DNA of 64,000 nt. Origin: a virus. The stretch covers positions 18,653 through 82,652 of IMG/VR virus record IMGVR_UViG_3300034092_002634. One strand, given 5' to 3'. The notes beneath the pieces were generated by a model. It was not told where the DNA came from. It saw nothing but the letters and a program-made list of their open reading frames with translations, and did no database searches. The position numbers and the translations under genes were made by a program. Every line of letters begins with the position of its first letter. The stretch's first letter is position 1. Shown piece after piece: positions 10,301 through 53,664 of the stretch.

Positions 10301-13264
10301 TGGAGCAACCCCGGCTGTTTCGTAATCCGAAATCATTTGAGTGACTTCATCAACTCCCATGCCGGCAGCGCCACCTCGTCGCCTAATTGAAGCAACTATT
10401 TGATTTTTTATTGCTGGGGCTGCCAAAGTCAACACGCGTTTAATTAATTCTTTGGGATCCATCGACGTGTCTAACTCAGCAAGTTGCTTAAGTGATTCAG
10501 AATCTATCGCTTGCAGATGCGGAAGTTTAGCTTGCACCTCTTGAAATAGACTCTGCTCTTCTGCGTCAAGGTCGGTTGAAGTTGCTAACTTAGCATACTC
10601 AATTAAGGGAATACCGCCAGAGCCGTAACTACCCATTTCTGCGGATGCTTGAACAATTGATTGCAAACCTTTCTTTGTTCTGTAGCCACCACCAAGCGAT
10701 TGATCAAGCTCTTCTCCCTCAAGCATTTTACCGCTGGCGTCTGTCGCACGTGCTGCATGATACATACCAGTAATGACATTACCCGCAGAAGCAGACTGTC
10801 GAGATAAACCAAAAGCATCACTTATAATTTCGATAAACTCTCGATTTTGCTGACCTGACGATACTGTGCCGGCTGAGTCTAACTGCTGCGTAATTGGCGT
10901 AGTTTGATAGCGGTCTAGTGCCATAGACTGACCGGACGTCATATACTCTACTAACGACTGTACGGGACTAGTTCCATAAGAGGGCCTTGCTGGAATTGTG
11001 AGTCCCGATTGTGCAAGTCCCGCAGAAACTTCCTGAGCCTTGCTCATAATCGGCGCTACCGCATCAGGTGTTGCAGGAATGGATCCAATAGACTGTTTAA
11101 ATAAAACAGTTAGTGCTTGATCTCGCGTTAACGCCGGAGCTGTGTTACTGCCCGGAAGTGCTATCTGTCCACGTCTTTGCGCTAACTTTTTTTCCTCTTC
11201 TGGATTTTCAGATTCAGCCAGAATCTCATCCAGTAACTGTATCTCTTTGCCAAGCTTTGCCGACTCAGTTCTGTAGCGATTAGCCATTGCTGGAGCCGCA
11301 GTTACCATACTGAGATCCGCCTGATCTCTCTGATAAACAAGTCTTTCGCGCAAACGTTTTGCGTGAGTTACTGCCAACGTAACTTCCTGTTCTTGTTCCG
11401 GAGCAACTGTCTGCTCTACAAAACGACTAGCGGACTGATCTGAAACAGCCCCTGTCGAAGTATATTGATTTATTAAATCGCCCGCAAACAAAGCAACAAA
11501 CTTTCGTACTGGATCTCCAGTAACTATCGCCCCTCTAGGTCCCCGAGTTCCAGCCATTCTACCAAAAGCTGTTGTGTGTTCTGACAAAATTGAACTAGAT
11601 TGAATCGCCTCCACAACCATTTTTGCAAGAGATTCAGGCAAGTCTACAGTCTGCCCTGCGATCGAAGCGGGCCTTATGTTTCCTTCTTCTATGTCCTGCA
11701 TAACGGTTGAAAAGAGCGCGTCAACCGCCTTTTGTACTTCGGCGTCCATGCCCCCACCGAAAACGGCGCTTGAGCTTCCGGCTACTACTTGGGAACCGGC
11801 ACGAACGTCTACGCCTTGCGCTTCCGAACTGTAACGACGCGTAGGATTTAGTGAAGCTTTAAGTGATTGAATATACTTTGAAATGTTAGCACCAATTCTG
11901 GTTACCTGTCCCGGAAATACTCGGCTACTCCGTAAAGCGTCTACTACTTGAGGACTACCGTCTTCTCCGGCATTTTGTATGCTAAAGTCAGTTCCCAAAA
12001 ATAACGCAGAAGAATCTACTTCTTCTGCAGTACCTGGATCGACTGTTCGGCTTCTTGGTATTACCGGTCGAGTCGTTGCTTCTGCAACTACCGTTTTCAA
12101 TCTTTTCAGCAACTGATCAAAAGCCGCCGGACGTAAAAACTCAAAACCTTCAGTACTTAAAGCTGTTTCTCCTACTCTTCCTGCTGCACCATTCTCAAGT
12201 CTAGTTACCAACATTTCAACGGCTCTGGTTAGAGCGGACTCAATTTCAGAACTGCTAGCTACTGGAGACATTGCCGCATTAAGTATAGGGTCGTCTAATT
12301 TTACTGCCCGCAATGCTTCAATAATTGGGGCAATAATTGATTCTTGTGCCGTTTGTCGCTGTGTGTTGCTTACTGTGCCAGAAGATTGATTTATCTTTTT
12401 GAATGCTTGCTTAATTTGCTGATTTATTCTATTTTTGTCCGCAGGAACAGTTGCCTCTTCTCGGTCTTTTACAAGTTTTTGAAGTTCGGCGACAATCGGG
12501 GCAATTTCCGGACGAGTTTCGGCTGGATTTTCGTGACGCAGTTGAGTATTCACATATTTAACAATTGCCGAAACGGAGGCGTTTTCGGGAGGCCTTGCTC
12601 CGCCCGATTGAGCTACGCTGACTCGTCCTCCTCGATTCGGTGTAACAGCATAACTTGTAGCGGAACGAGTATCCGGTGTAGTAAGTGCCCATTTCATGTC
12701 TGCGTACTCAGGATCCGCAACTGGTGAACTTGATTGAGAGCTTCTTACCGAAGTTCTCATCTTAGCTTGTGTTCTTCTAACCATATCCCTAAGAGTATCT
12801 TCTCGTTCATCTATTTGCTGATCTAGTTGTGCGAGCAAAAGTTCAAAGTTAATGCTTCTGTCTGTATGTCTTTTTACAACCGCTGGCCTGTTCTCACCAC
12901 GAATCTCCTGTACTCTTGCTCTTCTCTCTTCGTCTAGTTTGTCTTGTACTTCCTTACGCCTACGTGCTGCATCCGAAACTACAGGTGTTGAACGAACACC
13001 GCCCGAGACAGGACTTTCGTCAGCTGATGATTTTACTGAAAGTGAGCTTACAACTTTAATCTCATTTTCTAACTCGTTGATAACTTTGCTAGCTATTTTA
13101 GCATCTGCTGTAATTTCTTTTAAATATCCGGCTAAACCACCTTCGTGTGCGTTTGCTTTGCTTTGTATAACCTTCTCAAAAACAATAGCGGCTTCCTCAC
13201 TAGTACTTTTTAAAAGCGTTAGTGTTTCAATTAACTCTACTAATTGTTGTATTTTAACTGACAT
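1..13264 (-). CDS. Giant (>=4421 aa, runs off window) tape-measure-position polyvalent virion protein
   Basis: ATG at 13264 with AGGTGG RBS. Hand translation (MSVKIQQLVELIETL...) found no stop down to position 2. Missing from the ORF track because it has no stop in the window. Follows tail tube and tail-assembly chaperones; Ala/Glu-rich helical segments with embedded enzyme motifs. Confidence 0.88.
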   Translation of the reverse strand, partial: MSVKIQQLVELIETLTLLKSTSEEAAIVFEKVIQSKANAHEGGLAGYLKEITADAKIASKVINELENEIKVVSSLSVKSSADESPVSGGVRSTPVVSDAARRRKEVQDKLDEERRARVQEIRGENRPAVVKRHTDRSINFELLLAQLDQQIDEREDTLRDMVRRTQAKMRTSVRSSQSSSPVADPEYADMKWALTTPDTRSATSYAVTPNRGGRVSVAQSGGARPPENASVSAIVKYVNTQLRHENPAETRPEIAPIVAELQKLVKDREEATVPADKNRINQQIKQAFKKINQSSGTVSNTQRQTAQESIIAPIIEALRAVKLDDPILNAAMSPVASSSEIESALTRAVEMLVTRLENGAAGRVGETALSTEGFEFLRPAAFDQLLKRLKTVVAEATTRPVIPRSRTVDPGTAEEVDSSALFLGTDFSIQNAGEDGSPQVVDALRSSRVFPGQVTRIGANISKYIQSLKASLNPTRRYSSEAQGVDVRAGSQVVAGSSSAVFGGGMDAEVQKAVDALFSTVMQDIEEGNIRPASIAGQTVDLPESLAKMVVEAIQSSSILSEHTTAFGRMAGTRGPRGAIVTGDPVRKFVALFAGDLINQYTSTGAVSDQSASRFVEQTVAPEQEQEVTLAVTHAKRLRERLVYQRDQADLSMVTAAPAMANRYRTESAKLGKEIQLLDEILAESENPEEEKKLAQRRGQIALPGSNTAPALTRDQALTVLFKQSIGSIPATPDAVAPIMSKAQEVSAGLAQSGLTIPARPSYGTSPVQSLVEYMTSGQSMALDRYQTTPITQQLDSAGTVSSGQQNREFIEIISDAFGLSRQSASAGNVITGMYHAARATDASGKMLEGEELDQSLGGGYRTKKGLQSIVQASAEMGSYGSGGIPLIEYAKLATSTDLDAEEQSLFQEVQAKLPHLQAIDSESLKQLAELDTSMDPKELIKRVLTLAAPAIKNQIVASIRRRGGAAGMGVDEVTQMISDYETAGVAPAGFQDEFRALAMFDPANINTTDVSAAVNRSLSLFSNLLTDNVQSGEGMPQFAARVLGRQDRLVGTGPDVAAAVPDQGASYSLLGKGAEVANQESGQVVGGAYGRNVENEIKIQEAMREFEQLTAEIEEMRSRIALAPHEADKILPVIDQKNNQLKILKQKLATYKASEPDPISQKFEYLSTIAQMDNIDPATRSGAIYDLGIMQEIFNQTGRYQIDESQGYGTGTQEQRLTNLMAHKAKLDNLQKLREERAALEAELPGDGPAKAVEAVIKESDVDGEIAAVKKDISDMRSEGAGSEKAIDVLSYADTIDEEIAIDENAVPLKIPRINLTERKNITEDVTAEDESVFVHSTTGEDQLIESPAFVAFLASKEEQEAKGNQDRLAIRQNAETGTLTAAVADGVSKAWFSTHLAEMLVQEAANLPADEPFTTESILARVNNRSAQTEVNDLLQLFAADDKDSTARLMLNRAGLQKTDESRNQFIEFLKPFEEAGTSPTVGELIKYLHSRQDKKDSGQIAGATFAAYRRTRSSEGYKHEFVTAGDALIESADLGISKETLGEDKGGYTGPSTAAIGATESGIMHEGRVLAVESKTPARVFLASDAYSHSGQFSKLDPEVDTEGFVGLGERLLLDEGELGTLQDDRSFIGITGSEQIGPVVKTGGLVKESFSETQSTEHLEASLAQEKRKLSQIKQAMTDEPDIDERLEKERQEDIERAKDKFERKKSLLNLIELTHKDIVDEYDAALQARLKRNSLSYEEAEENKATLQRLQQTPEMQKVFKARDEAHRAQKEYEAAEQTRPISARKAKVVTEANIQAIEGELVKRGILTTASETATPETPVSVISTPETIDEEIARVQGEIAALESPATKLAREAAERGVTGQGQVAGRTYVHPDVSHGELTYMSRRSTLPLTADYPEQISERFAKTGRIDISPEVPGSDASRVVNAAVAETLGLSVGPEVMPEVSAITPDNVPDTSASNRASAGAVPYFFVPGQSEPMVVVGQSTKSYKGRGVAIPVMGTVDPGQTQWQAAEREAQEELGVVFDPKADVPVAISPTTTDAFYMRRVQSVSPAATHFETQGVQILPLSAAIGQIDASRMSTQRDVAAGREALVALQAMVASGEITNDQEETPISNEQTQKMIELTAELTELEAKKKAAITGEDAQTIVDQEIAAGEEKVAALEQEIQRTEKLKTLQEVTIRSKKRQIEKQSVTGPVTIQEYQRPNFAYSYEAPGSRAEQESVFDELVEELFDSVPSEEYIAQLDSEIEKLDSLLKPEEEKRQAEIESFEPLKKRANRGIKEGTQESGMPPLLDAFARLGLDMENGEISTDSPFVGLDFGNIIGAAISMAPEDEKDRDSWNPEDLTAILNNAAENPEAAQALIERANLLASDPASKEKSEESKKRDRLKLKRAMLEDFAIEDESNPPEMHQPSWDIQRARRVNQGIRAKNEDVAARLQKIEEIDKLAEEDKAILQDLGVTVSPTDSSESVTTSVLNAASTEIARMILEDRAPSADRPVLSVDELRVGRNEELHKLPEEILDVGLAGNKNTLRETIGFESARRTQGMTGPAITVPTLAGLLANKDQLLLDKDGQPILIYRGEDEDQVAAKQGETPLAYEAVEREGDPLAVFPSEFPMAMGGGSRYGEGLYHTSTRTGSETDEEQSPDTSREVAHGYRSKSVEGEIRSSVNVSALLSTASLLDADSEMIQKAQQRVDERRIALGLTPLPKDTASAMRGGVEDVMEELYREKVDPTARLQSDILNEADMLMLPYGGGSSNINLGVKSYPVSRRTDVPEEVQTRLQALHEEFVAAPKPDELAVAMGYDAIRYRAEHNPNTPVHLNLFNAAATALVLDPVIPNTAKHLGSESLSLQVEPTLREEAKYSETERRAQELQSQLEQQKQQLEALKARSEALKQEAAAASTPSVDVTAVTEESKRVADETVKVSADIKVPTEEIQKRKADVDAKIAEAEQAVAQSQQVIELMQRQAQGLDTEDSDIRFVVDNTGIPVSYEDKQVIDRTSLRPLVRTKMTVDDTGESGFVSNLNVRDIVDQAEAVKPTAELMDEISKMSDADLAAVKMPRATLSPEDQAIDDELKRKSREAQNYASRLYNTEGPISAAIKEYYRTPSGDRKDELLKTHPELKTIVDEIQKQENLVIQHDASRAALTAPAVAAAESSASPLQLAARLFRSSRAAVRAYETEFGVEPAFSAREVMDELLASSARAEVDSAPAGSAETAVALDKTISSFEGGIPEIKGSTDRAPRRPRRAPADVVADVEQPYTENQLKYARAQVRALAGRTDLTAEQKRQLSEARKKLHNYAMKRLTTNFGDNKGVMQIANVVAGLTPPDWAKDDVQSARVSAISQAMASLKPIQLAKLKDADLTNPVQMDILSRDPALQPIMAMLADQDIESVLKFRSGTTEYDEAKGLLGAIKGARERIVVPEPDEPTTSTAAEAKRLFFDLETNIAKKPEDRLIFQAATGVNDGAVTDMYAVPLDSSAEEINRIAADPTIPDDEKRKLIRALALKREGKLPLVEGRASGNDVSSGVIDKLVDTAMSGRQIMSQGQIRKNLQLQIEGATTVAGHNIQKFDLPTVYGGTMAVPDAVKAKTEDTLLMSRDMYPGSHTLGATYEAVTGDPLVDAHDAAVDTRAVQRIFPQVSDPEERAKVTEAYLAKHGIAVDSTVGQLVATPKLEDIADAEERKKATSRVAAAHSFYRPLADMQEFTRRIARRGDKTILRDADRTVAAEQDWYDMSASEKSSLFDRMNSMFAGDLKGKKIEELNPEELGEFVKKINTEYLEPNADAAVGGDFGGMKRLLEEKVGGGMSFRDFRAKDARVADIKGKTIEDVVATADLSPVTVGPAISKETVGDAIEDISLATERPTKVKTPGSAPSVTASTSDGGSKEPPREPPVTFSDDADSGERGGPGGGITTIASATIDTLHAGAVEINIHGGNVTIDANFSAGAAEKMQKSLVYISNKDGMNVNGDVTSVGTGGGGGGYRRVSVADRSILNQLDAAKNQIAGQLQTETDPATRERLRGNLNEVSRQAIRAIIEPKVKAIDSEGMEPYVNERFYYGDETTDSKESLTYYNDAVAQAHQDLTTQLEAQQAIPEGTDGRDEEIQRIQKQISLVEELINALTELNQAEQRVGSATSTRAIVDPTEVKKPAYPTNNSGYRKLSPEDRASLAVLDATKNSISEQLRTEQDPEARARLKETLTGASKKAIADIIKPKATKLLGYGFVNTVDALSTSPEDSLVNYSQAAQSKLSELNGRLFMIESEREDAPGREEAIERTKREIQQVHELIDALTELNQAEQRVGAAGATRNAESPYGPKPTADPRAGANKYRKVSFADQASFNVLESTKNEVSARLRDETDSAARDALRQSLVNASERAINEVIKPKAAKVLNPTQLAALSALPMGPEEALVSYNEMAQYNLNN
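2340..2950 (-). other. DEDDh (DnaQ-like) 3'-5' exonuclease domain within giant ORF
   Basis: ExoI LFFDLET, ExoII AGHNIQKFD, EDTL, ExoIII AHDAAVD, all in frame. Confidence 0.85.
4760..5560 (-). other. ADP-ribosyltransferase-like (ART-PolyVal/MuF-type) domain within giant ORF
   Basis: DKDGQPILIYRG ... GSRYGEGLYHTS ... VAHGY ... AMGYDAIRY ... HLNLFN; the terminal catalytic Glu is not evident. Confidence 0.6.
7000..7370 (-). other. Nudix hydrolase domain within giant ORF
   Basis: Nudix box GTVDPGQTQWQAAEREAQEELGV at 7184-7252 (GX5[E>Q]X7REUXEEXGU), preceded by the SAGAVPY strand. Confidence 0.8.
8360..9200 (-). other. PP2C/PPM-type Ser/Thr phosphatase domain within giant ORF
   Basis: In-frame motifs in the correct order: GNQD, AVADGVS, GATFAA, TAGDA, FLASDA, QDDRSFIGI. 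Confidence 0.8.
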
Positions 13265-36970: not shown

Positions 36971-37024
36971 CCCCCTCACGTTACGGCAGAACACGTGAGG
37001 GGTTCTTTTTTTTTTATTTTTTTT
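36971..37024 (+). terminator. Strong terminator before early array
   Basis: CCCCTCACGT/ACGTGAGGGG stem followed by a long T tract. Confidence 0.75.
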
Positions 37025-37223
37025 CTGGCGTCTGCTGGCACTCTGGGGCTTTCTAGGGAGCATTGAACATTATGTTCAGTTGTCGAAACGGGTTGATGCT
37101 TTTTGAAATTTTTCAGTATGACAAAGGTATGGAAGGTGTAGGTATGTATAGGGTTTTTGACTACCTACCATCTACTGCTTGTGTAAGTAGTAGTAATCAA
37201 CTGTCTTTGAAAGGACAAACATC

Positions 37224-37388
37224 ATGTCGAGCATCATCATCATCACCGTCGTCGTCATCGTCGTCACCATCGTCGTTATCATCGCTATCCCTCAGTTGAT
37301 CATGAAGGGTGCAAAGACGTCTCATGAGCTGTGGGTTGAGCGCAACAACGAGGCAATCGCTCAGAACAATGCAGCGCGCCGCAAGTAA
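37224..37388 (+). CDS. Small membrane protein (54 aa; not in ORF track)
   Basis: GAAAGGA RBS; MSSIIIITVVVIVVTIVVIIAIPQLIMK...RRK*. Confidence 0.65.
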   Translation: MSSIIIITVVVIVVTIVVIIAIPQLIMKGAKTSHELWVERNNEAIAQNNAARRK

Positions 37389-37390
37389 CC

Positions 37391-37456
37391 ACAGCGAAAC
37401 AATCTACTCAGTAATGAGTAGGTTGTATGCAGTTTATAACTGCACTGACGAGCTGT
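37391..37456 (+). ncRNA. Hammerhead ribozyme, type II
   Basis: ACAGC GAAA CAATCTACTCA gtaa TGAGTAGGTTG TA TGCAGTT tat AACTGCA CTGACGA GCTGT: complete core and three stems; GUA cleavage after 37427. Confidence 0.92.
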
Positions 37457-37498
37457 TCGTTAGTAATCAGTATTGTCTCTTTGAAAGGACAAACAACC

Positions 37499-37981
37499 AT
37501 GTTCGCAGTCATCATCACCGTCTTCGCAGTCATCGTCGCCATCCGCATCATCAGCAGCATCACCGTCGAGATCACCACCCACCAGTACGATGTCGAGTGT
37601 GAGTGTGTCAAGTGTCAGCAGACCAGCAAGGAGATTCGCAACATGAGTAAGTTGAACGTCAAGTCCATCGAGGAATACGCAGCCATCTACGCTCAATGGG
37701 TATCAGTCGACACCTCAGTCGAAGAGTACTCGGCAGCTGCAGTTGACGTCATCATCACCACAACCGGCACTTGGAAGATGACTTACGTCGTCAACAAGTC
37801 GGTTAAGTTCACTGGCCGCACGTCATACACCGGCAAGACTTCGGGTTGGTTGTTCGAAAACGTCAACACCGGTGCAAGCGACATGTACCTCCAGATCAGT
37901 GGTAAGTCCTCCGCATGGGAAGCTCGCAACTGGTTCGGTAACGGTAACTTCGCTGTCAACACCAAGGTCGCTGTCAAGTAA
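37499..37981 (+). CDS. Hypothetical protein (TM helix plus YDVECECxxC motif)
   Basis: GAAAGGA RBS before MFAVIITV. Confidence 0.6.
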   Translation: MFAVIITVFAVIVAIRIISSITVEITTHQYDVECECVKCQQTSKEIRNMSKLNVKSIEEYAAIYAQWVSVDTSVEEYSAAAVDVIITTTGTWKMTYVVNKSVKFTGRTSYTGKTSGWLFENVNTGASDMYLQISGKSSAWEARNWFGNGNFAVNTKVAVK

Positions 37982-38063
37982 CTAACCAACTAGCAACGCT
38001 CACCTGCTACAGGATGTGAGAATTATCAACATTGCCCAATAAGGGCTAGAGAGAGTGACTACA

Positions 38064-38378
38064 ATGGAGAACATGCTCAACATCACCGCAATCGCCGCCA
38101 ACGACTGGAACGTCTGGACCTGTGCTCACTGTGAGTCGTGCAACTTCGGTGACACGAAGGTCTGCATCGTGTGTGACATGGGCCGCTGGACCAGCTGTGA
38201 CATCGAGTGCGAGCACAACCGGCCAGCACCTGCTTCGGTAGCGGTATACGTCAACTTGGATGAGGTTGTCCAGGTGCCGTTGCCATACACCAACATCCAT
38301 CAGGTGCCTGCTAATTACAAGGAACTGATGGACATGGAGCGCGAAGGTGCTCTGCAGTTGGAAATGCGCTTGTCGTAG
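38064..38378 (+). CDS. RanBP2-like Zn-finger small protein
   Basis: WTCAHCESCNFGDTKVCIVC. Confidence 0.55.
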   Translation: MENMLNITAIAANDWNVWTCAHCESCNFGDTKVCIVCDMGRWTSCDIECEHNRPAPASVAVYVNLDEVVQVPLPYTNIHQVPANYKELMDMEREGALQLEMRLS

Positions 38379-38478
38379 TCTTGTTCACCTGCAACGCTCA
38401 CCTGCAGTAATGGATGTGAGATGTCCGTATGTCCGTATGTGTGTTTATTATTATGTTCTTTGAAAGGACAAAACTACC

Positions 38479-38844
38479 ATGAAGTCAGTCATCAACGCAG
38501 TCATCGGCATGTTCGTGTTGGTCGTCAGCCACTTGGTCATCTACTTCGTTCGCAACCTGAAGATGGGCTTCATCTTCGGCGTCGTCATGCTCACCTTGCT
38601 TGGCTTGGGCATCAGCGGCGAATTGCCTTCTATCGACATTGTCACCGCTAAGTGGGTAGGCATTCTGACCGTTGGGTACGCAGCTGTCGTTGCTGTATTC
38701 GGTGTGTTCGTAACCGCTTACGAGATTCGTAAGTACATGGCCAAGGAAGCAAAGGGCCAAGACACCTGGATTGAGCGGATTAACCTTCTTAAGGTTGTCT
38801 ACAATGTTCCAGGATACAGCTTCCGCAACAACATCACCAAGTAG
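38479..38844 (+). CDS. Small membrane protein
   Basis: Three hydrophobic helices; RBS. Confidence 0.6.
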   Translation: MKSVINAVIGMFVLVVSHLVIYFVRNLKMGFIFGVVMLTLLGLGISGELPSIDIVTAKWVGILTVGYAAVVAVFGVFVTAYEIRKYMAKEAKGQDTWIERINLLKVVYNVPGYSFRNNITK

Positions 38845-38955
38845 TCAACACCGGAGTGGGCGGCAACCGGTCAACTTGCCCACCATTGGAGAAGTGATGC
38901 ATCTCCAGCATAGATCAGCATCCTTGCTGCGTTTGCAGCTAGAGGGGTATTACCA

Positions 38956-41423
38956 ATGGGTAAGTACTATCGGTCCTCGGTGGTTGTTCGTTGGTTGGTG
39001 CACAGTCTGAGCGATTGTGCTATGAGACTGATGCCAATTGGTTTGTCTGATGTCGAGGACGGTAGTCTTCGGTGGAAAGCAGCCAACTGGCTGATGCGCA
39101 AGACTAGCGACTGGGCTGTCGCGCTTAAGAAGGTCTAGTCCACCGTGGAGTAAGCGGATAACCACGTTAAAAACTTGCTTACCATTGGAGAAGTAATGCA
39201 ACTCCAGCATAGCACTGCATTCTCGGATGACAATCATCTGAGCTATAGCTGCCATTGCAGCTAGAAAGGTACGCCTTACCATGGGTAAGAAGTACAACAC
39301 GTCCGCAGTCACCGTTCGTCCGATTGCCACCGGGGAGCTTGCCTTCCTGGTCGAGGCATGGGAGGGCATCAAGCCTTCCCGCAAAGCCGCGGTGACGGTG
39401 CGGATTGCTCGGGAGACCGAGCGTCCGGCCAACTGGCGGCCAAAGACCGACAAGATCGGTCGCCGTCCTCGGATTGAGGCGGTGGTGGCTGAGCGAGAAG
39501 TGGAGGAAGGGCCGCACGAGTGCGACTTCTCGATCAGCCGGTGGGAGGATGTCATCTACCACCATAGCGGGTGGATTGACGTAACTATCGCACGGTGTGA
39601 GTGCGGTAGTTACAACATCACTCCGGAAGACCCGGAGATCCACATCTCCGAAGACGACCACGCTCACCAAGTGTGGATTATTAAAAAGTATAGGTGTAAT
39701 CCTGTGGCGTACGTTTCCGAGTCGTACGAGGGCAGTTCGCCCTTCAAGAAGCTCGACCGGTAGTCACACGTGGAGTCAACGGATAACCACGTTAAAAACT
39801 TGTTGACCATTGTATATACATAATTCTGTGTATATACTAGCTCTCGAAAGGAGCACGGCTATGGAATTCCTTGAGGTATTAGTTCGCGGTAAGACGGTCA
39901 AAGATGTCAGCGTCGAGCAGATCGCGCGCAACATCTACGAAGTCACGGTGGGCCATGGCGGCGGGGAAGAGGGCCCCGACGGTGAATGGCGTGGCTACGT
40001 AATCGGTCGTAGCCAAATTATCATCGCCAGTAGCATGTACGATGCGTGCTACAAGGCGCATCACTTAGCCAAGATAATTGGCTAAGTGTGTTGCAGAGTG
40101 GGCGGTAACTGCATAACTTGCCCACCATTGCATACAGTATAATTCGGTATTGTATGCTAGCTCTCGAAAGGAGCATATCATGCATAAGTATGATGTAGAG
40201 TGTGAGTGTGTAGTGTGTGTGGCGTGGACCGACCGGATCGGGCATAAGTTGGAAACTGTGGCAACATACGTTGACAACAGTGGACACGATTACGACATTG
40301 AGTGCGAATGCACTGAGTGTCAGAAGATCACGGTGGCCGAGCGCGAAATCCAGATGTATGTCCTGGGGGAACCAATCTCTGTCCCGGTTACGATCAATCC
40401 AGAGGTTCAGGAATTCGCTGACAAGAAGTTGTCGGATAGTATTCGGTTCGATCAGCACTAATCAGCACTAGAGCTCTCGGCAAAGCTCGTTAAACACCGA
40501 GTAGAAGGGAATGTCTATGTATGACATTCTGGTTGTGACGGTGTTGGCATTCGTGATGATGGCCGTGTTATTGAAAGGTGGTCGGTAATGAGTCCTGCAG
40601 AACAACTATACGTCGAGAAGTTGTGTCGCCAGTACTATCAGGCGCTCTATGGCGTAGATTACGTCGTAGAGTTCGGGCATATCTTGCTGTTTCCGCATAA
40701 GCATGCGGAGGCTGTGGTCAAGCTCGAGAAACTCATGGAGAATGTCGGTTACCAGGTAGTTCGCCTGGTAGAAATTCGGAAAGGGTAAACTAGTGCACAA
40801 GATCACCCTGTTAGACGTTCGGCATAGTGCTGCCGAAAAGCTGGCCAAAGAGAAACTGCGGGTAGAAGTACCCGCAGAATACAACGGGGATTGGTTCCCC
40901 GCTGTCATGTACGTACCTGCGTATCCCCGTCAGGAGGATCACAGCGTGGATGCTTACACGTTCAAATGTGTGAGCGTCAACGCTAGCCTGAAACGTCTTA
41001 GACGGCTCTACACGGCCCTTGGTGGACGCGCAATGCCTCCGTGGTCCGGTATATTGGTTGACGGCGTCGAGGTCAACGGGAACGTCAAGGACGGCGAGTA
41101 GTCCACCTGGAGTGAGGGGTAACCAGTATAACTTCCTCATGTACTAATTTAGCTCTTGAAAGGAGCGTGTCATGCACAAGTATGACGTTGAGTGCGAGTG
41201 TGTCGAGTGTCAGAAATCCTGGAGGGTGGAGCACATCTGGGAGACCGTCAACTCCCAGGCGGAAGCAGACTGGACTTTCTCGGGTGACACCGAGGACGAG
41301 GTCGTCGCCGCTGCGTACAAGCGCAAAGAGACTCTTCGCCCCACTGAAGAAGAGTGGATGGCTGTGGAGGACAAGTTCTTTCTCTACAAAAAGGGGAAGT
41401 TCTTGGGAGAGTTTTCCCTTTAG
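38956..41423 (+). CDS. Small early genes: 38956-39138, 39281-39763, 39861-40085, 40180-40461, ~40517-40588, 40588-40788, 40793-41101, 41172-41423
   Basis: Each has an RBS or translational coupling; separated by repeated structured elements. Confidence 0.55.
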
Positions 41424-41497
41424 TAGTCCACGTGGTAGTCGGATAACCACGTTAAACACCGACATCATTTTATGTGCAAAAGCACAAGGAGAATCCA

Positions 41498-41974
41498 ATG
41501 CCTAATTGGTGCAGTAACGTTGTTCAACTCAGCAAAGACGGGTACGACTTTACGAGCATGGAAAAACGCATCCCTACCGAGGGACTCTATGCGCAATTCC
41601 TTCCCGCACCCGAGGGACTTGACGACCACCAACTGACGGATTGGTGCTACGAGAATTGGGGCGTTAAGTGGGACACCCAGAACGCAGATGCCGGCGTCGA
41701 TGGCGACCGCATTCAACTGTGTTTTGATAGCCCATGGAGCGCACCACGGCAGTGGCTCGCCTATATGGTGAGCATCGGGTTCGATGTCCGAGGTGCATTC
41801 TGGGAGCCAGGCATGGCCATGGGCGGTGTCTACACTACCTTGCACGATGGAGCACTAGTTGCTCCAGCATTGGAGTGGACGCAGGACAACCTCGTCGAAC
41901 GGGGTAGCGAAATGTACGAATATCTCATCAGTTACGGACTGATCTCAGAAGATGATGAAATGATCAACGACTAG
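41498..41974 (+). CDS. DUF1281/YubB ferredoxin-like family protein
   Basis: MPNWCSN, WCYENWGVKWD, FDSPWSAP, EPGM. Confidence 0.8.
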   Translation: MPNWCSNVVQLSKDGYDFTSMEKRIPTEGLYAQFLPAPEGLDDHQLTDWCYENWGVKWDTQNADAGVDGDRIQLCFDSPWSAPRQWLAYMVSIGFDVRGAFWEPGMAMGGVYTTLHDGALVAPALEWTQDNLVERGSEMYEYLISYGLISEDDEMIND

Positions 41975-42043
41975 CTCGCACGAGGTAACCGGCAAACCTC
42001 GTTAAACACCGGTATCTTTTTATGCTCACGAAAGGAGCACGGT

Positions 42044-44323
42044 ATGTTGTATTGCATGATGGCGGTGTCTCGATGGCTTACTGGTGACCCGGACTTCGGG
42101 TACGATGGGGAGATGATCCCCAAGGTCACCGCGGTGATCTACATCCGTGAACAGCCCTTTGAGGACTGGGAGCGGGAGGAAGGCAGGAATATCTGGAAAA
42201 TCAAGCTCGGTGAGTCTACTGTTGTGTCAATGCATAGGTGGACAACTGATCTCTCTCCAGTGGAGATCAGTACCAAGCATGACTGCGAAGTCATTGACTG
42301 GTCCAAGCGGTAAGTGGAGATCTCGGAGTGAGGGGATAACCGATGTAACTTCCTCAATAGTTATATTAGCTCTTGAAAGGAGCAACGCTATGCAAGTACT
42401 GCAAGCACGGGGAATTATCCTGGAAAATCTGGAAGCGCTTCGCGAGTTCAAGCCCGAGGACTTGCGGCTGGTTGCGTTATACAACGCAGCAGCAGGGCAG
42501 TCCTGGGCCGAGTTCAACCTTATCCGCACAACGTGTGCGGACTGGGACGAGCTCACCTACAACAACTTTGAGGAGGAAGACCTCAAGAATTTGTGGGACG
42601 AACTCTCTGAGCATTTCAGCAAAATCTGGGAAGGAACCAAGTAATGCGAGTACGTGGCAAGCAGCCGCATGTCTATCGTGAGTCAGAAACGGCTACGATA
42701 GCGCGGTACACCAACTTGCTCCCTCCTGTGTACGAGGCAAGTGCACAGGAGTGGAAGGTGTTTGGCCGTCAGGATACCATTGTCCGTGTTGGTACGCGGG
42801 CGACTATGCTGACGTATCTCAAGGGTAGGCGCGATCAGTATACTCGTATGCACGGATACGAGGATTTGACTGACCCCTGCCTCAGGCTGAGGTGGGATAC
42901 TAGTCTGCGGTGCTTTCACGTGACAGAGCCGCAGTTGGACCTACCCGTGTTCTCAGGTACTAAGTACATGTGTACGTGGTATCTGGTTGGCCGGTCGGAC
43001 GAGTTCCAAGGCCTGTAGTGTGTTGACAACGCTCACCTGTGTCGGATGTGAGAAAGTAATTATAGCCCTGAGGGGCAAGAAGGAGAGTGTGACTATGGGT
43101 AAGGTTATCACCGCAGCGGTCTTCATCAGCATGTTCAACAGCTCATTCCGGGACAGGCTCGAGTGGATGAGTGAGGAAGTTCGCGACCTCACGGTGGACG
43201 CGCTCACCCGGGAAGGCTACGACGAGGACGATTTGCGTCGGATGTCGGATGCCTTTGCCAAGCTGGAGGAAAAGTCCAGCGACTTGATCGAGACAGACTA
43301 CGCCAACGATCTGCTGAACGTGGACGAAGAGAGTCTCGATGAGGGTTACTACTCGGATGGTGAAGACGAGTAGTAGGTAGCGGACTGGCAACTCTCGCCT
43401 GCGTCGGATGCGAGGAAGTAATGTATAGCCCTGAGGGGCAAGAAGGAGAGTGTGACTATGGGGACTCAGCATTGCGTCTTGATCCAGGACCGTTTCGACA
43501 ACGAGGCCAAGTTCAACTTGGTCATCACCCACGACGTACCCTTCCACCCGGAAGCGGTCTTGTGGATTGCTCAGCTGTACACGGCAAAGCGTTGGGGGTC
43601 ACAGCCCGACGTGTACCGCACTGCCGAGCTCGATGTCAGCGTCGACTGGAACGACATCGTGTACGTTCCGGCGCTAAATGTCCTGGACTTCGAGTCCTCG
43701 GACTACTGGCCAACACAGAAGCAGCTGAGGTTGGCTCGGATGGCGTTGGATTCGTACCGTATGTTTTATGACGAGTTGGCAAGGCAGGAGAAGATTATCT
43801 CCGGCTATGTCCGTCAGGAGATGCACAAGCAGTACGGTGAGGACACCGTCGCTATGCGTCTTCCCACCTTCCACAGCCGTGCTTCGGCATTGGACATCCT
43901 AGTTCATCTGGCACGGTAAGTCCACACGAGGTAGCCGGCGAACCTCGTTAAACACCGGTATAGTATTATAAGTGCAAGAGCACAAAGGAGAGCAAGATGC
44001 GTTACTCAATCAAGTTCGTGGCGAGTGCGAAGAAGTCCGTTCCCTTCGGCCTGGGTATGAGCAAGAAGTTCCACGACGCTGTGTGGAAGGGTGGGTGTAA
44101 GCGCCAGTGGCACGACATTGGTATCAAGGCCACGGAGTACTGCCTGCGGACACGTTCGTGCATGATCGACGTCGAGGCCTCGGACGCTGCTGAGTTGTCG
44201 TTTAAGCAGGAGGTGTGCCAGAGCCTGGTCGACTACATCTGGCAGGCAAGCAACAAGCCCTTTACAAGCGTAGAGGTGTTCGAGACGTGGAGTCACAAGG
44301 TTATCTACAAGGCTGATCTCTAG
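42044..44323 (+). CDS. Small early genes: 42044-42313, 42390-42644, 42644-43018, 43095-43373, 43458-43919, 43997-44323
   Basis: AAGGAG RBSs; separated by repeated structured elements. Confidence 0.55.
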
Positions 44324-44398
44324 GAATGTCTGGCAACTCCCACCTGCGACGGATGTGGGCAAGCAAAGCAATGTGCAAGTGCACAAAGGAGCAACAGC

Positions 44399-45259
44399 AT
44401 GTCTGATGTCAAAGTCCCTGCAGCAGAGCGTATTGGGTCCGCGATGGTTGAGAAGCTGATCGAGTCACTCGAAGCGGGAGTGGCAAACGGTCAATGGAAG
44501 CAGCCGTGGACAACGTCAAAGCAGATCAATGCGGTCACCGGGGCTAGCTACTCCGGTGCCAATGCGATCAACTTGATGTTGATTGGCGCGGAATGCCCTT
44601 ACTGGGCTACCTTCAATCAGTGGTCGACAGCCGGTTACCGTATTCCACAGGGTACGGAATCCAGCGGTTTTGTCCACACCCCTCCGAGACGGAACAAGAA
44701 GACGGAGAGCGGCGAAGAGATCACCATATTCGTCCCATCAAAGACGTTTGTGGTGTTCAACGGTTCACAAGTCGTTGACGCCGATGGCAACCCGTTCACG
44801 TGGGAATCTTCGCCACCTGTTCCGGTTCTTCCAGAGATCGAGGCCTTCTTCGCCAAGCACAATCCAACGATTGTGCATGACGATCCCAGTAGTGCATATT
44901 ATCATCCGTCGAAAGACTTGATCAATATGCCGCCGATCAACTCGTTTGTTGACAATGTTTCATACTATGGAACGTTAGCGCACGAGATGATTCACTGGAC
45001 TGCACACAAGGACCGGCTGGATCGCGATCTGTCTCAGTATGGCCGTGATCGTAAAGTACGCGCATTCGAAGAACTCATAGCTGAGTTCGGCGCGGCCATT
45101 ATCGGTAGTGAACTTGGTCTAACTACTGAGGTGAGAGATGACCATCTGCAGTATCTAGCTTCTTGGCTATCCTCCCTTAAGGAGGATAAGACGGTACTGC
45201 GGCGGGCGGTTACCGAAGCAGGTAAGGCTTCAGCCTACGTCAGCAGAGATGCTGAGTAG
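44399..45259 (+). CDS. ardC: ArdC-family antirestriction protein (ssDNA-binding plus zincin-like domain)
   Basis: WKQPW, N..TG..YSG.N, WATFNQW, VFN, AYY.PS.D.I.MP, HEMIHWT, EELIAE, YLASWL. Confidence 0.9.
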   Translation: MSDVKVPAAERIGSAMVEKLIESLEAGVANGQWKQPWTTSKQINAVTGASYSGANAINLMLIGAECPYWATFNQWSTAGYRIPQGTESSGFVHTPPRRNKKTESGEEITIFVPSKTFVVFNGSQVVDADGNPFTWESSPPVPVLPEIEAFFAKHNPTIVHDDPSSAYYHPSKDLINMPPINSFVDNVSYYGTLAHEMIHWTAHKDRLDRDLSQYGRDRKVRAFEELIAEFGAAIIGSELGLTTEVRDDHLQYLASWLSSLKEDKTVLRRAVTEAGKASAYVSRDAE

Positions 45260-45304
45260 TTTACATATACCGGTTAGCTCTCACAGAAAGGGGGTGATTA
45301 CCAC

Positions 45305-45607
45305 TTGCCACCATTCGGATTCATGGTGTTAGTTTTCTTCCATCTCCGGTACAAGACTGGAGGTGGTCGGTTCGCCTGGAGTCTGTACTCACTGCGCGCG
45401 TCGCTCAAGTATCAGGACGGTTCGATCTACGGTCGAATACTTTACGACGGGTCGCGTCCGTTGCTAGAGACCTGGGAGAACGGCGTGCGTATCTGGGTAA
45501 GTCCTGACTACGATGCGTATATGGCTGAGTCTCAGCGACGTATCGATCAGGCTGCCAAAGAGTACCGCGTCACGGAGACTTTCGGTCCTGGCGATTCCAT
45601 GCCCTAG
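45305..45607 (+). CDS. Hypothetical protein
   Basis: ORF with GGGGG RBS. Confidence 0.45.
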   Translation: MPPFGFMVLVFFHLRYKTGGGRFAWSLYSLRASLKYQDGSIYGRILYDGSRPLLETWENGVRIWVSPDYDAYMAESQRRIDQAAKEYRVTETFGPGDSMP

Positions 45608-45624
45608 TGTCTGATTATTAATCA

Positions 45625-47588
45625 GCGGTAGGGTACTGTGCCCTACCGCATATGGGAGATGCAACTACTATGCGTAAGCAAGCACAAAAGACCGCAGTGA
45701 CCGTAGTCGAGAACACTGGCAACACCAAGCTGGTTGGTACGTCCGCGATGTACAACTGGATCACCACCTACACCGAGGTGGGGCCGACCTGTCCTACGAC
45801 GTGTTGGTTCCACCCCGAGTCTCTGTATGCCGACGATCTCAAGAAGCTCAAACTCAAGGCCTGCTACACCAAGCGTGGGCATGTGTCCTTCAGTGTTGCG
45901 GCTTCCAAGTTCGCTGGTGCAGATACGTCTGACGGTGCGTTGACTCCTGTGCGTGAGCGCTTCGATCGCATCTTCTTGATGCACGAGGCCGGACGCAAGA
46001 CAGTCGACGGCATTCGCTTCCAGACGGGTGGCGATATTCTCCATCCAGTTACGGGTCAGCCGTGGGTGGAGTTCATCGACCTGATCCTGTACGTTATCGA
46101 GCGTGCATTACCTCTGGGGATACCAGTCATCGGCTTCACCGCTACGTGGCGGTATCCCGAGGTGCAGGTGCTACGTCGCAAGTTCCATGCTTCTGTTCAG
46201 ACGTTTGCTGATGCTCGGCAGGCGACTGAGATGGGTTGGACCGTGGCGTATGCAGTGGGCGAGCAGGACGTACTACAGGCTGTCAGTGAGCTCAGGAGTC
46301 TCGGTCAACGTGCTGTATACTGTCCTGAACAGGCAGGTAAGGCAAAGAGCTGCAGTGACTGTGGTCTGTGTGCAGTGGCCGATAGCAGTAGACTCGACAG
46401 AGTTCTTTGGGAAGAGAACTACATGCTGTATCGGAAGCGTTTTGTGTTGACCGACATCCCAGTGTCGATCGTACTCAAGAACCACTAGTCGGTAAGTCTA
46501 TGACCCGGGGACAATTCGGTTCCCGGGTCTATTACAAAGGAGTGTGTAGGGTTATGGAAAAGCGCGCATTGATCCGGTGGAATGACGGTGAAGATCTCCA
46601 GGTGTTGATTGGCATCGGTAAGTGGGATGGTAAGTCGAACGACGACCACATCTTCTACTGGATGGAAGAGTTGACTGACTACCAGGTTGGGTACCGCAAC
46701 GGTGATGGGTGGACCATCATCCAGATCGAGAAGGAGACTGCGTTGAGTACTAAGTGGACATTGAATCGGCCTGAGCTGGCAGACAACGACGAGGAGGTAG
46801 TGGTGGGTCTCGACTACAACAACGAGCGGTCAGACTTCAATCTGGCGCGCGTACAGTTTGTCGAGCTGTACAACGGTATCCCTGAGCCATACTTCCACAT
46901 CAGCTTCGACGAGGCTATGTGCTACAGTGTGTCTGCCAAAGAGTTGTTGTCCGACACCTACAAGACCATCTACGTACCAGGTGCTTGGGGTGCGACTCTC
47001 TGCTGGATTCCGATCCACCGAGCGTAGTTGTTGTGGTCCATGCGGGATAGTAATGTGCTATCCCGCTTACCTATAGGAGGATGCAATGAGCATCAAGATT
47101 ACTGTGACTGAAAAAGTGCTGAAGGACTCGTTGATCTCGGCCGTGTCGGATCTCTATCATGTCGACAACTGCGAAGAGTTCGGCGAGTGGATGTTCGTGC
47201 GGTACTTCGGTAACCGCGCTGACCTCGAGAACGATCTGTCCGAGCAGCTGGGTCACTCTAGCTACAACATCGGCATCTCGCTTCTCAACCTGGCACCAGA
47301 CTCAGATGAGTTGCGGCGTGACTACTTCCGCCACAATCACCGCAACAACTTGCTCACACTCGAGCAGGCGGTGCATATGATTCAGTTCGGTCACGAGATC
47401 TGGGTCTGCAACTACAATGCAGATCAGGAGATTGATCTGTTCACGACCGTCACTATCTCGGACTTCGACGAGGACCGTGACGAGTCATTGACCGAGTGGC
47501 TCAAGGACATGCAGGCCTGGGCTAAGCAGGACTGGGCTAAGTAGTCTACACAGTGGGGTCCCTGCGGAGTAGTAAAGTGCTACTCCGC
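45625..47588 (+). repeat. Three 9-bp hairpins with TA(A/C)(T/A)GTG loop
   Basis: 45625-45649, 47042-47066, 47564-47588; stems differ in sequence but pair fully. Confidence 0.7.
45670..46488 (+). CDS. Cys-rich GP88-like phage protein
   Basis: GNTKL, TCPTTC..ACY, RFQTGGD, CPEQ....SCSDCGLC. Confidence 0.6.
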   Translation: MRKQAQKTAVTVVENTGNTKLVGTSAMYNWITTYTEVGPTCPTTCWFHPESLYADDLKKLKLKACYTKRGHVSFSVAASKFAGADTSDGALTPVRERFDRIFLMHEAGRKTVDGIRFQTGGDILHPVTGQPWVEFIDLILYVIERALPLGIPVIGFTATWRYPEVQVLRRKFHASVQTFADARQATEMGWTVAYAVGEQDVLQAVSELRSLGQRAVYCPEQAGKAKSCSDCGLCAVADSSRLDRVLWEENYMLYRKRFVLTDIPVSIVLKNH

Positions 47589-48183
47589 TTTCTTATAAGG
47601 AGCGCGAGAGTTATGCATCACACCTACGTGGCAATTGAGCTTTCATCGGAAGACATGGAGCAGGCTCTAATTCAGATCAGGGACGTCGTCGAGCATGATC
47701 CTGAGGAATGTGACGTCAACGATACGGAGATCGAGTTGGCTCCTAAGCTGGCTTCTCTCTGTATCCTGTTCCTGCATGAGTTCGCAGAGGCACAGGCGCA
47801 AGGTAAGGTCAACCTCGATTCAATCTGGCTACCGAATTACGAGCTTCGGCTCTTGGTGGCTACGGCCGCGAAGTTATTAATGGCAGCATCTGAAGAGAAA
47901 GAGGGTGAGTAACATGGCTAAGTTCACTGTAATTGAGTACATGGACCCAGCAGGCGACGTCGACAGCATTGAAGTTGACTTGGCGTGGCCACTTGCAGAC
48001 GTTCAGCTGCTACTGGCGTACCAGACACGGCGTCACGAGACACAGTGGAAGGAGCACTTCGGTCCTACTGACTACTTCAATCGTCAGTACCCGCGGATGA
48101 TGGCCGTGATTGCGGATGCTAAGCGTCGTTTCGGTAACGGTACCCCTATCGATGAGCTGACTATCATCGACTGGCAGGAATAG
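46554..48183 (+). CDS. Small early genes: 46554-47027, 47086-47544, 47613-47912, ~47914-48183
   Basis: RBSs; separated by hairpin repeats. Confidence 0.55.
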
Positions 48184-48185
48184 TC

Positions 48186-48253
48186 ACGGCGAAACGGTCC
48201 ACTCACACGCGTGGGTGGGCCGTATGCAGATCACATCTGCACTGATGAGCCGT
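48186..48253 (+). ncRNA. Hammerhead ribozyme, type II
   Basis: ACGGC GAAA CGGTCCACTCAC acgc GTGGGTGGGCCG TA TGCAGAT cac ATCTGCA CTGATGA GCCGT; cleavage after 48224. Confidence 0.93.
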
Positions 48254-48825
48254 CAGGTTCTCTCAGTAGTACAGCAGCGAGGGAATTGATGCATCTTGTC
48301 TGCTGTATTTTTTATGGCAGAGGCCATAGCTACAACAAGTGGGGGCTATTTTTATGTGGGAGCCCTCTTTTTATGCCGGCGCTCGTTGATGATGACGGAC
48401 ATGATTGCAATCGCAAGGGAGGGGTGCCGAGGGGAACCAAGCGCTAGGGGGTGCCGAGGGGGATGCCGCTTTGTGCGCTTTTTCACATAAGCGTTTGTAC
48501 ACATTTTCACAAGCTCACGACGATTTCTGCGATCTTGCACAGCTTTTTGGCCAAAGCAACATAATTGAAACTAATGTTGCTTTGGAAATGCACGCACTTT
48601 GCACAGACTTTGGCCAGATCGTAAAGTTTCCTTCATTTTTTAAATAAAATTGTGAACATATTCACAATCTTACCCTACTTTGTGCACGTTTTCACAGGCC
48701 AGCATGGCTTTCTGCTGCCATTTGTGCTACTTTTCTGCACTTTTAAAACCGAAAATTGATCCCAAGGAAGTGCTGCGACAATGTTATTCATGGCTTGTGC
48801 AGGGATGCGTGTGTCTATAGACATA

Positions 48826-48871
48826 AAACAAAAATGACTGGGTAGTCATCATAGAGATGGCCCCCAGTCAT
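48826..48871 (-). terminator. Terminator of minus-strand operon
   Basis: ATGACTGGG/CCCAGTCAT stem followed on the minus strand by TTTTGTTTT. Confidence 0.6.
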
Positions 48872-48873
48872 AA

Positions 48874-48904
48874 TGTGGACAAATTGTGGATAGATTGTGG
48901 ATAA
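48874..48904. promoter_or_regulatory. Three phased DnaA-box-like 9-mers
   Basis: TGTGGACAA, TGTGGATAG, TGTGGATAA at 11-bp period. Confidence 0.55.
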
Positions 48905-48906
48905 CT

Positions 48907-51912: not shown

Positions 51913-51998
51913 TGGTGCCAAAGACGGGAGTCGAACCCGTACGAGGAAACCCTCAGCAGTTTTTAAGACTGCAGCGTCTGCCATTCCGCCACTCTGGC
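51913..51998 (-). tRNA. tRNA-Leu(TAA)
   Basis: GCCAGAG acceptor, GCAGT-CTTAAAA-ACTGC anticodon arm, long variable arm, GGTTCGAC, CCA end. Confidence 0.95.
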
Positions 51999-52036: not shown

Positions 52037-52112
52037 TGGTGGGCCAAGCAGGATTCGAACCTGCAACCAAATCGTTATGAGCGATCTGCTCTGACCTTTG
52101 AGCTATTGGCCC
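52037..52112 (-). tRNA. tRNA-CAT, probably Ile2 (lysidine, reads ATA)
   Basis: GGGCCAA acceptor, CTCATAA loop, GGTTCGAA, CCA; Ile2 versus Met is inferred from the acceptor stem. Confidence 0.85.
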
Positions 52113-53588: not shown

Positions 53589-53664
53589 TGGTACCGGCGG
53601 AGGGTCTCGAACCCCCGACAACCTGCTTAGAAGGCAGGTGCTCTATCCGCTGAGCTACGCCGGC
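53589..53664 (-). tRNA. tRNA-Arg(TCT)
   Basis: GCCGGCG acceptor, CCTGC-CTTCTAA-GCAGG, GGTTCGAG, CCA. Confidence 0.95.

Follow-up and report, generated by a model that had tools for sequence, protein, structure and literature searches.

Introduction

Natural type II hammerhead ribozymes were described in 2011 by Perreault et al., who found them clustered in prophages, where they flank genes or short gene blocks that include anti-restriction genes (PMC3088659). Hammerheads that flank prophage gene blocks in this manner cleave in vitro and in E. coli, and the same authors proposed that they take part in the processing of long phage transcripts (PMC3088659). Cleavage in vivo has been seen by cyPhyRNA-seq for three type II hammerheads of Desulfovibrio vulgaris that lie near phage-like genes (PMC8782182). 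Processing of polycistronic RNA and effects exerted from the 3' UTR are among the roles proposed in the field, and the role of bacterial and phage hammerheads has been called 'largely elusive' (PMC6765202); the mammalian CLEC2 hammerhead, which lies in a 3' UTR, lowers expression by removing a polyadenylation signal (PMC6765202, PMC5502269).

The DNA analysed here, which we call the window, is 64,000 nt long and forms the final part of one 82,652-base virus record, obtained from lake-water metagenomes, that CheckV rates as complete. A 13-kb megablast against cultured phages returned no match and the phage's DNA polymerase is at most 29% identical to that of any cultured phage, so this phage has no annotated relative. 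Two predicted type II hammerheads, HH1 and HH2, lie on its plus strand, one at either end of a block of small genes, and it is HH2, the one behind the last gene, that we consider in most detail.

Compared with the Rfam family of type II hammerheads (RF02276), HH2 is alike in its catalytic core, its three-way junction, its GUA cleavage triplet and its phage location between or after small genes, but it scores under the family's cut-off, has no pseudoknot between loop I and the 3' tail, carries a stem III about twice the length of the consensus (13 bp versus 6 bp) and has a loop I of only 3 nt. As in the prophage clusters of Perreault et al., two same-strand hammerheads surround accessory genes that include one for an anti-restriction protein (ArdC-like here, ardA in Agrobacterium). 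On the other hand, the two sites here are 10.8 kb apart at the ends of the unit, whereas those in the published clusters surround single genes within about 2 kb; moreover, HH2 has no gene downstream but a terminator directly behind it, and the inner gaps of the block hold structured elements other than ribozymes. The hammerheads of D. vulgaris share their topology and their vicinity to phage-like genes with HH2 and show that predicted sites of this kind can cleave in cells; their loci are chromosomal (prophage-like). The CLEC2 hammerhead and ribozymes engineered into bacterial 3' UTRs, like HH2, lie between a stop codon and a 3'-end signal; their cuts remove a protective signal and lower expression, whereas the predicted cut in HH2 would leave a very stable hairpin, so that its effect may have the opposite sign. 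At structured RNase III sites between the early genes of phage T7, a long transcript is cut into hairpin-ended pieces with 3'-OH and 5'-P ends. Hairpin-ended pieces would be expected here as well, but the cutter, a host enzyme in T7, would be the RNA itself, and the ends would be a cyclic phosphate and a 5'-OH.

HH2 is a clean new example of a phage arrangement known since 2011, not a new kind of element, and it is a somewhat atypical member of type II, with a long stem III, a triloop on stem I and no pseudoknot. It is also a useful natural test case: with no gene downstream, an ordinary terminator behind it and a post-cut hairpin stronger than that of the terminator, its position restricts what it can be doing to the formation or alteration of the upstream message's 3' end.

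Type II hammerheads were also seen elsewhere. Among the other type II hammerheads that we examined, those in two of the three other phages start between -1 and 2 nt from a stop codon. In an unrelated viral contig (L007), two minus-strand hammerheads of different type, one type II and one type I, lie about 1 kb apart at 4382-4446 and 3320-3373, a further case of types clustered together.

Genomic setting

The preceding plus-strand genes end at a strong intrinsic terminator, so that the block of small genes behind it should form a separate unit. This unit runs from the terminator through the first of the small genes, HH1 and about 25 small plus-strand genes to HH2 and the second terminator, with both hammerheads on the same strand between the two terminators and their predicted cuts 10.8 kb apart.

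36972-37024, plus strand: strong intrinsic terminator with a 10-bp GC-rich stem and a long T-run; ends the preceding plus-strand genes
37391-37456, plus strand: HH1, predicted type II hammerhead; predicted cut past A37427; 81.6 bits with the custom covariance model R1
44399-45259, plus-strand block: gene for an ArdC-like anti-restriction protein
47564-47598, plus strand: terminator-like hairpin inside the block, with an 11-bp stem (47564-47588) and a T-rich tail; precedes the last two genes
47914-48183, plus strand: last plus-strand gene, 89 aa, TAG at 48181-48183; no PHROG or Pfam match
48186-48253, plus strand: HH2, predicted type II hammerhead ribozyme, 68 nt; 96.3 bits with R1
48268-48313, plus strand: intrinsic terminator, hairpin at 48268-48306 (-14.0 kcal/mol) followed by six T (48308-48313)

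The 89-aa protein encoded by the last gene has only two homologue clusters among 5.8 billion proteins, and one homologue (P0002) is 66% identical to it. Its TAG is separated from HH2 by 2 nt, and the terminator begins 15 nt past HH2. An initial reading of this DNA, made from the letters and their open reading frames (the sequence-only reading), had placed HH2 at the close of an early array. The closing position holds, with the last gene immediately upstream and the terminator right behind; the label 'early' would rest on gene content (small genes and the ArdC-like protein). It was likewise correct that no credible gene follows, as the open frames at 48211 and 48286 overlap the ribozyme or the terminator, and the DNA past 48317 diverges with indels in relatives. 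Beyond the terminator lies a 590-nt non-coding stretch, followed by converging minus-strand genes. At the other end of the unit, no sigma-70-like promoter was found in 37025-37223.

The end of the block differs between strains. One contig from a subsurface metagenome joins 47602 to 47914 and thereby lacks the gene at 47613-47912, which lies behind the hairpin at 47564-47588; this stretch is also unaligned in a related 72-kb phage, G001.

Sequence and predicted fold of HH2

Read 5' to 3', HH2 opens with one strand of stem II and GAAA, continues with the stem III hairpin, GUA and the stem I hairpin, and closes with CUGAUGA and the other strand of stem II, which is the permuted, type II topology, in which loops close stems I and III and stem II is open.

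48186-48190 with 48249-48253, plus strand: stem II, open helix of 5 bp (ACGGC with GCCGT)
48191-48194, plus strand: core GAAA (G12, A13, A14, A15.1), invariant in all copies
48194-48223, plus strand: stem III hairpin of 13 bp (48194-48206 with 48211-48223), -23.5 kcal/mol
48207-48210, plus strand: loop of stem III, ACGC
48224/48225, plus strand: predicted cut between A48224 and U48225, A48224 being A17 of the GUA triplet at 48222-48224; placed by applying the hammerhead consensus
48225-48241, plus strand: stem I hairpin of 7 bp (48225-48231 with 48235-48241), loop CAC
48242-48248, plus strand: core CUGAUGA, invariant among orthologues; HH1 has C at variable position 7
48254-48267, plus strand: 3' tail of 14 nt, whose pairing to the core would give an alternative hairpin

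The core residues C3-U4-G5-A6-N7-G8-A9 and G12-A13-A14 are all present, as CUGAUGA (48242-48248) and GAA (48191-48193), and the three core-adjacent pairs, 10.1-11.1, 1.1-2.1 and 15.1-16.1, are standard (G48249-C48190, U48225-A48241 and A48194-U48223, respectively). The triplet G-U-A is of the N-U-H form, and the stems of 5, 7 and 13 bp contain no mismatch, in agreement with the acceptance rules of Perreault et al., which ask for three helices, for standard core-adjacent pairs and for short stems free of bulges. Folded to minimum free energy, the 68 nt are predicted to adopt precisely the hammerhead structure (-36.8 kcal/mol, z = -5.5); HH1 and HH2, each folded alone, both give the hammerhead secondary structure, with z about -5.4.

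These results bear out most of what the sequence-only reading had said of the element. A perfect core (CUGAUGA, GAAA, GUA) is indeed found 2 nt past the last TAG with every part at its proposed position, and the cut that had been predicted at 48224 agrees with the consensus-derived site. The 5-bp stem I given there (TGCAG with CTGCA) is present but incomplete, since the full stem has 7 bp and the loop CAC. Comparison with HH1 confirms that stem I resembles that of the first copy and that stems II and III have diverged with their pairing kept. We consider it very probable that HH2 is a genuine self-cutting hammerhead RNA.

Two hammerheads in one genome

We scanned all 82,652 bases, on both strands and in three topologies, for the core pattern together with the required pairing. 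Only two sites were returned, 48186-48253 (25 stem bp) and 37391-37456 (24 stem bp), which upholds the view of HH2 as the second of two hammerheads. When 100 dinucleotide-shuffled genomes were scanned in the same way, the best stem total was 14 bp, and 72 of them contained no match at all.

The Rfam model Hammerhead_II (RF02276) aligns over its full length to 48187-48258 with a score of 28.9 bits (E = 0.026 for 18 kb scanned with 4,227 families) and is the best non-tRNA match in that scan. Both this score and the 18.8 bits of HH1 lie under the gathering score of 37 bits, which is a search threshold and not a structural definition. In the alignment HH2 agrees with the consensus at every core position and departs from it elsewhere, with 11 nt inserted in stem III, a shorter loop I and a 3' tail that hardly fits; we read the low score as the result of these departures, going by the alignment as a whole and not by itemised scores. 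Type II hammerheads that, like this one, lack the pseudoknot and have a long stem III score under the Rfam cut-off and are therefore missed by routine annotation.

A custom covariance model (R1), built from four distinct sequences (HH2, its orthologues in contigs L035 and L036, and HH1), found no further or degenerate hammerhead copies in this genome or in G001. A weak R1 match in G001 (L012:11222-11282, 17.5 bits) was rejected as chance, as it has no core and lies inside an open reading frame.

Conservation and covariation

The arrangement of gene, ribozyme and terminator recurs in G001 and in three metagenome contigs (L034, L035 and L036), with the ribozyme 2 nt past the same gene in each of them. 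G001 and L034 are identical to HH2 over the 68 nt. L035 differs from HH2 by two changes in stem III (U-G to C-G and C-G to U-G), and L036 by two more stem III changes (U-G to U-A and C-G to U-G), a new GCAA loop and a swap at pair 6 of stem I, which is A-U in two of the distinct sequences and U-A in the other two. The terminator hairpin is also kept in L036, through changes on both of its arms.

Across the four distinct sequences (HH2, L035, L036 and the paralogue HH1), which form a small sample, all 99 of the 99 pair cells are standard, and five pairs are changed on both sides, at least one in each of the three helices. As a control, sliding the partners by 1-3 columns lowers the pairing to 26-47%. 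Pair 3 of stem II is G-C in HH2 and A-U in HH1. In stem III, all four orthologue substitutions preserve pairing, the distal pairs are all kept in the orthologues, and three pairs are double-changed with respect to HH1. Considering that the sample comprises only these four sequences, and that the flanks of the element are also about 90% or more identical, the weight rests on the compensatory swap in stem I and on the comparison with HH1. A perfect core together with pair-preserving and compensatory changes in three diverged variants argue for purifying selection.

Within the phage lineage, hammerheads are sporadic: five other contigs that share a nearby ferredoxin-like gene gave no Hammerhead_II match at E <= 1. 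A search of prokaryote genomes with the stem I and core pattern returned four unrelated MAGs only, which offered no clue to the host.

Pseudoknot, alternative fold and RNA data

No pseudoknot of at least 4 bp was found when the 7 loop-I nucleotides were compared with 25 nt of either flank in HH2, L034 and L035. In L036, loop I has no match of at least 4 bp to the 3' tail, and what it matches in the 5' flank is short and rich in wobble pairs; in HH1, loop I has only weak 4-bp A/U matches with its flanks. Such a pseudoknot between loop I and the 3' tail is present in the majority of type II members, though not in all, and fast cleavage at 0.5 mM Mg2+ depended critically on it in the one that Perreault et al. 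mutated (PMC3088659). As HH2 has none, its cleavage could be slow.

When HH2 is folded together with a 24-nt tail, the prediction favours a structure in which CUGAUGA and stem II are sequestered, by 6.5 kcal/mol over the hammerhead, so that cleavage would need a short time window during transcription. Both ribozymes have a predicted core-sequestering hairpin, with p about 0.03 and 0.05-0.17 in comparison with shuffled or random tails. As a conserved switch this hairpin was rejected, since its outer helix is destroyed in G001, L035 and L036.

The sole metatranscriptome in which the phage was found, run X20, yielded short contigs at 41220-41770, 43796-44032, 45359-45552, 47706-47910 and 48617-48812. 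These cross neither ribozyme, are of a kind that cannot show RNA ends, and may be DNA carry-over.

The partner hammerhead

HH1 starts 2 nt past the TAA of the first small gene in the block. No counterpart was found in any relative examined, with the G001 contig breaking inside the region and the contig L013 diverging past 37012, and no viral relatives were found for the proteins that neighbour it. An Rfam match to freshwater-2 RNA (RF02980) at 37404-37501 was rejected at 25 bits against a gathering score of 49.9; it rests on generic hairpins together with a ribosome-binding site and AUG. On both sides of HH1 (37232-37290 and 37509-37574) there is ATC/GTC-rich, low-complexity coding sequence that specifies Ile/Val runs in small membrane proteins. 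An apparent peak of RNA depth at 37207-37613 is false, as the low-complexity ATC repeat recruits contigs of other organisms at 80% likeness.

Possible roles of HH2

On balance we favour the view that HH2 is an active, cis-cleaving type II hammerhead in the 3' UTR of an ~11-kb accessory-gene operon, and that it gives the message a defined and protected 3' end. This is an overall judgement, lying between the identity of the element, which we hold to be very probable, and its specific function, the precisely defined and protected 3' end, which on our model is about an even call; it also takes in the uncontested sequence, fold, conservation and position. Cleavage in vivo and an effect on stability are what we infer from these. 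The sequence-only reading had already suggested that HH2 may define a 3' end, and ours is the same preference, given that no cistron follows and that the cut would leave a stable stem III hairpin.

The position of the element carries much of this argument. Because no cistron comes after it, HH2 does not serve the 5' end of a downstream gene, and because a terminator comes directly after it, HH2 is not a substitute for a terminator; these two facts together suggest that what it alters is the 3' end of the upstream message. According to the model, once the polymerase has passed 48253 the three-way junction would fold and cut between A48224 and U48225. The coding RNA would then end 41 nt past its stop codon, in the 13-bp GC-rich hairpin of stem III, with a new 3' end made of a single unpaired nucleotide bearing a 2',3'-cyclic phosphate, and the ~89 nt left over, made up of the stem I hairpin, what remains of the core and the terminator, would be discarded. 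An end made by the terminator, by comparison, consists of a hairpin followed by a U-tail with a 3'-OH, and its hairpin is predicted at -14.0 kcal/mol versus -23.5 kcal/mol for that of stem III.

In bacteria, RNA decay by 3' exonucleases depends on a single-stranded toehold, and the action of poly(A) polymerase on a 3'-OH. It is from these requirements, which are those of general bacterial RNases and may not be those of the host, that a protected end would follow: the 3' end made by HH2 would be a poor substrate for both kinds of enzyme, and the 3' end of the message would be set independently of the point at which transcription stops. The distal pairs of stem III are expected not to be needed for catalysis, and an overlong stem III whose distal pairs are maintained fits selection for a terminal hairpin. 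At the same time, it is not obvious why a second end-maker would be needed, as the terminator 15 nt downstream already gives a hairpin end.

HH1 may do the mirror job, severing the first small cistron, along with the primary 5' end, from the remainder of the transcript. Its cut would leave the upstream product capped by a hairpin, and the downstream RNA would start with a 5'-OH on a 7-bp hairpin. One could go further and see the two ribozymes as caps for both ends of the operon, removing the triphosphate leader and the terminator and leaving a ~10.8-kb body, or pieces of it, with 5'-OH and 2',3'-cyclic-phosphate hairpin ends that escape decay, with the elements behind stop codons throughout the block all serving upstream 3' ends. 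Many inner gaps of the block do hold repeated structured elements just past stop codons, and HH2, with no downstream gene, shares this post-stop slot with the pseudoknots and hairpins of the inner gaps, which would suggest interchangeable elements that serve the 3' end of the upstream cistron. We think this extension rather improbable; if it were true, the RNA ends would escape those decay pathways that need a 5'-phosphate or a 3'-OH.

The main rival to a protective 3' end is that cleavage takes the terminator away and targets the message for decay, thereby limiting or timing expression of the accessory genes. Its geometry of stop codon, ribozyme and terminator is that of CLEC2 and of engineered 3'-UTR ribozymes, and ribozymes in bacterial 3' UTRs do change expression, which the CLEC2 hammerhead lowers (PMC6765202, PMC5502269). 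With HH2, however, the hairpin that stays behind is stronger than the terminator hairpin that is lost and has an overhang of just 1 nt, so a loss of protection is not expected, and we regard down-regulation as unlikely. The perfect core and the pair-preserving and compensatory changes in three diverged variants speak against a further view, in which the motif is a passenger left behind by horizontally moved cassettes and is now useless. That HH1 has no counterpart in any relative examined and that hammerheads are sporadic in the lineage, with none in the five contigs sharing the ferredoxin-like gene, is what such a relic would predict, but we hold it to be very unlikely.

The two remaining alternatives give a function to what is cut off or cut out. 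Release of a downstream non-coding RNA, put forward in the sequence-only reading, fares poorly because only about 89 nt separate the cut from the terminator U-run. This 3' fragment (48225-48313), with its 5'-OH, stem I hairpin and terminator, is predicted to form three hairpins, the last of them the terminator, which is the usual shape of a bacterial small RNA, and the sequence CAGGTTC just past stem II (48254-48260) is identical in all four variants. But most of the fragment is ribozyme remnant, it has no Rfam match, and its only clearly single-stranded stretch, the following 7 nt (48261-48267), is its most variable part among close relatives, all of which makes a functional small RNA highly improbable. 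The same reading had proposed that the pair of hammerheads could excise an RNA of ~10.8 kb. The distance is right, as cut to cut (37428-48224) measures 10,797 nt on one strand within a single terminator-bounded unit, and the 5'-OH and 2',3'-cyclic-phosphate ends of the freed body might in principle be joined into a circle by the reverse reaction of the ribozyme or by host RtcB. A hybrid stem II made of the two halves that the body keeps (ACGGC with GCUGU) would pair, one of its pairs being G-U, and the two stems I share 5 identical bp; the stem II sequences differ at one pair, however, so one hybrid had to fit, and the pairing is not evidence. Against excision and joining stand the terminator-like hairpin inside the unit (47564-47588) and the complete phage genome, which encodes no RtcB or Rnl2-type RNA ligase. 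The RNA contigs of X20, whose cover is very thin, contain no such joint, and a search by Perreault et al. for circular or spliced products of clustered phage hammerheads was negative (PMC3088659). We consider this outcome extremely unlikely.

Other elements of the region

Most of the 590-nt convergent non-coding region (48317-48906) is conserved in G001. Within it lie two copies of GGGGTGCCGAGGGG, along with several TTTTCACA-like boxes and a 12-bp hairpin (about 48551-48587), and one RNA-library contig covers 48617-48812; the region might serve as an origin, have a regulatory function or give rise to a non-coding RNA. The converging block behind it holds three minus-strand tRNA genes (51916-51998, 52040-52112 and 53592-53664), which are conserved in G001. 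At the far end of the window, a giant open frame on the minus strand (2-13264) runs off the window; it has more than 4,421 codons and no PHROG match.

Within the block itself, an element of ~40 nt is repeated behind stop codons at 39136-39187, 39761-39812, 40470-40500, 41421-41473, 41979-42023 and 43925-43969. It has the shape of an H-type pseudoknot, with a stem 1 such as ACGAGG/CCTCGT and a loop that pairs past a conserved GTTAAACA linker; both stems covary between copies, and the element has no Rfam match. A pattern search gave 58 matches, three of which passed the fold filter, and these fold-compatible copies belong to G001 (L006) and to L078 and L086, which are unrelated viral contigs; the stretches examined there hold no hammerhead. 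A second repeated intergenic element, found directly past stop codons at 37993-38025, 38391-38425, 43023-43060, 43385-43422 and 44330-44367, consists of a conserved GCAAC and a hairpin whose outer stem covaries (CTCAC/GTGAG, CTCGC/GCGAG and CCCAC/GTGGG).

Two further repeats are modules of translation starts. In the first, the Shine-Dalgarno sequence lies within a small hairpin, GCTCTCGAAAGGAGC (39840-39858, 40160-40178, 41152-41170, 42024-42042 and 42369-42387). The other, TCTTTGAAAGGACAAACA, occurs at 37204-37221, 37478-37495 and 38457-38474, where it precedes three small membrane-protein genes on either side of HH1.
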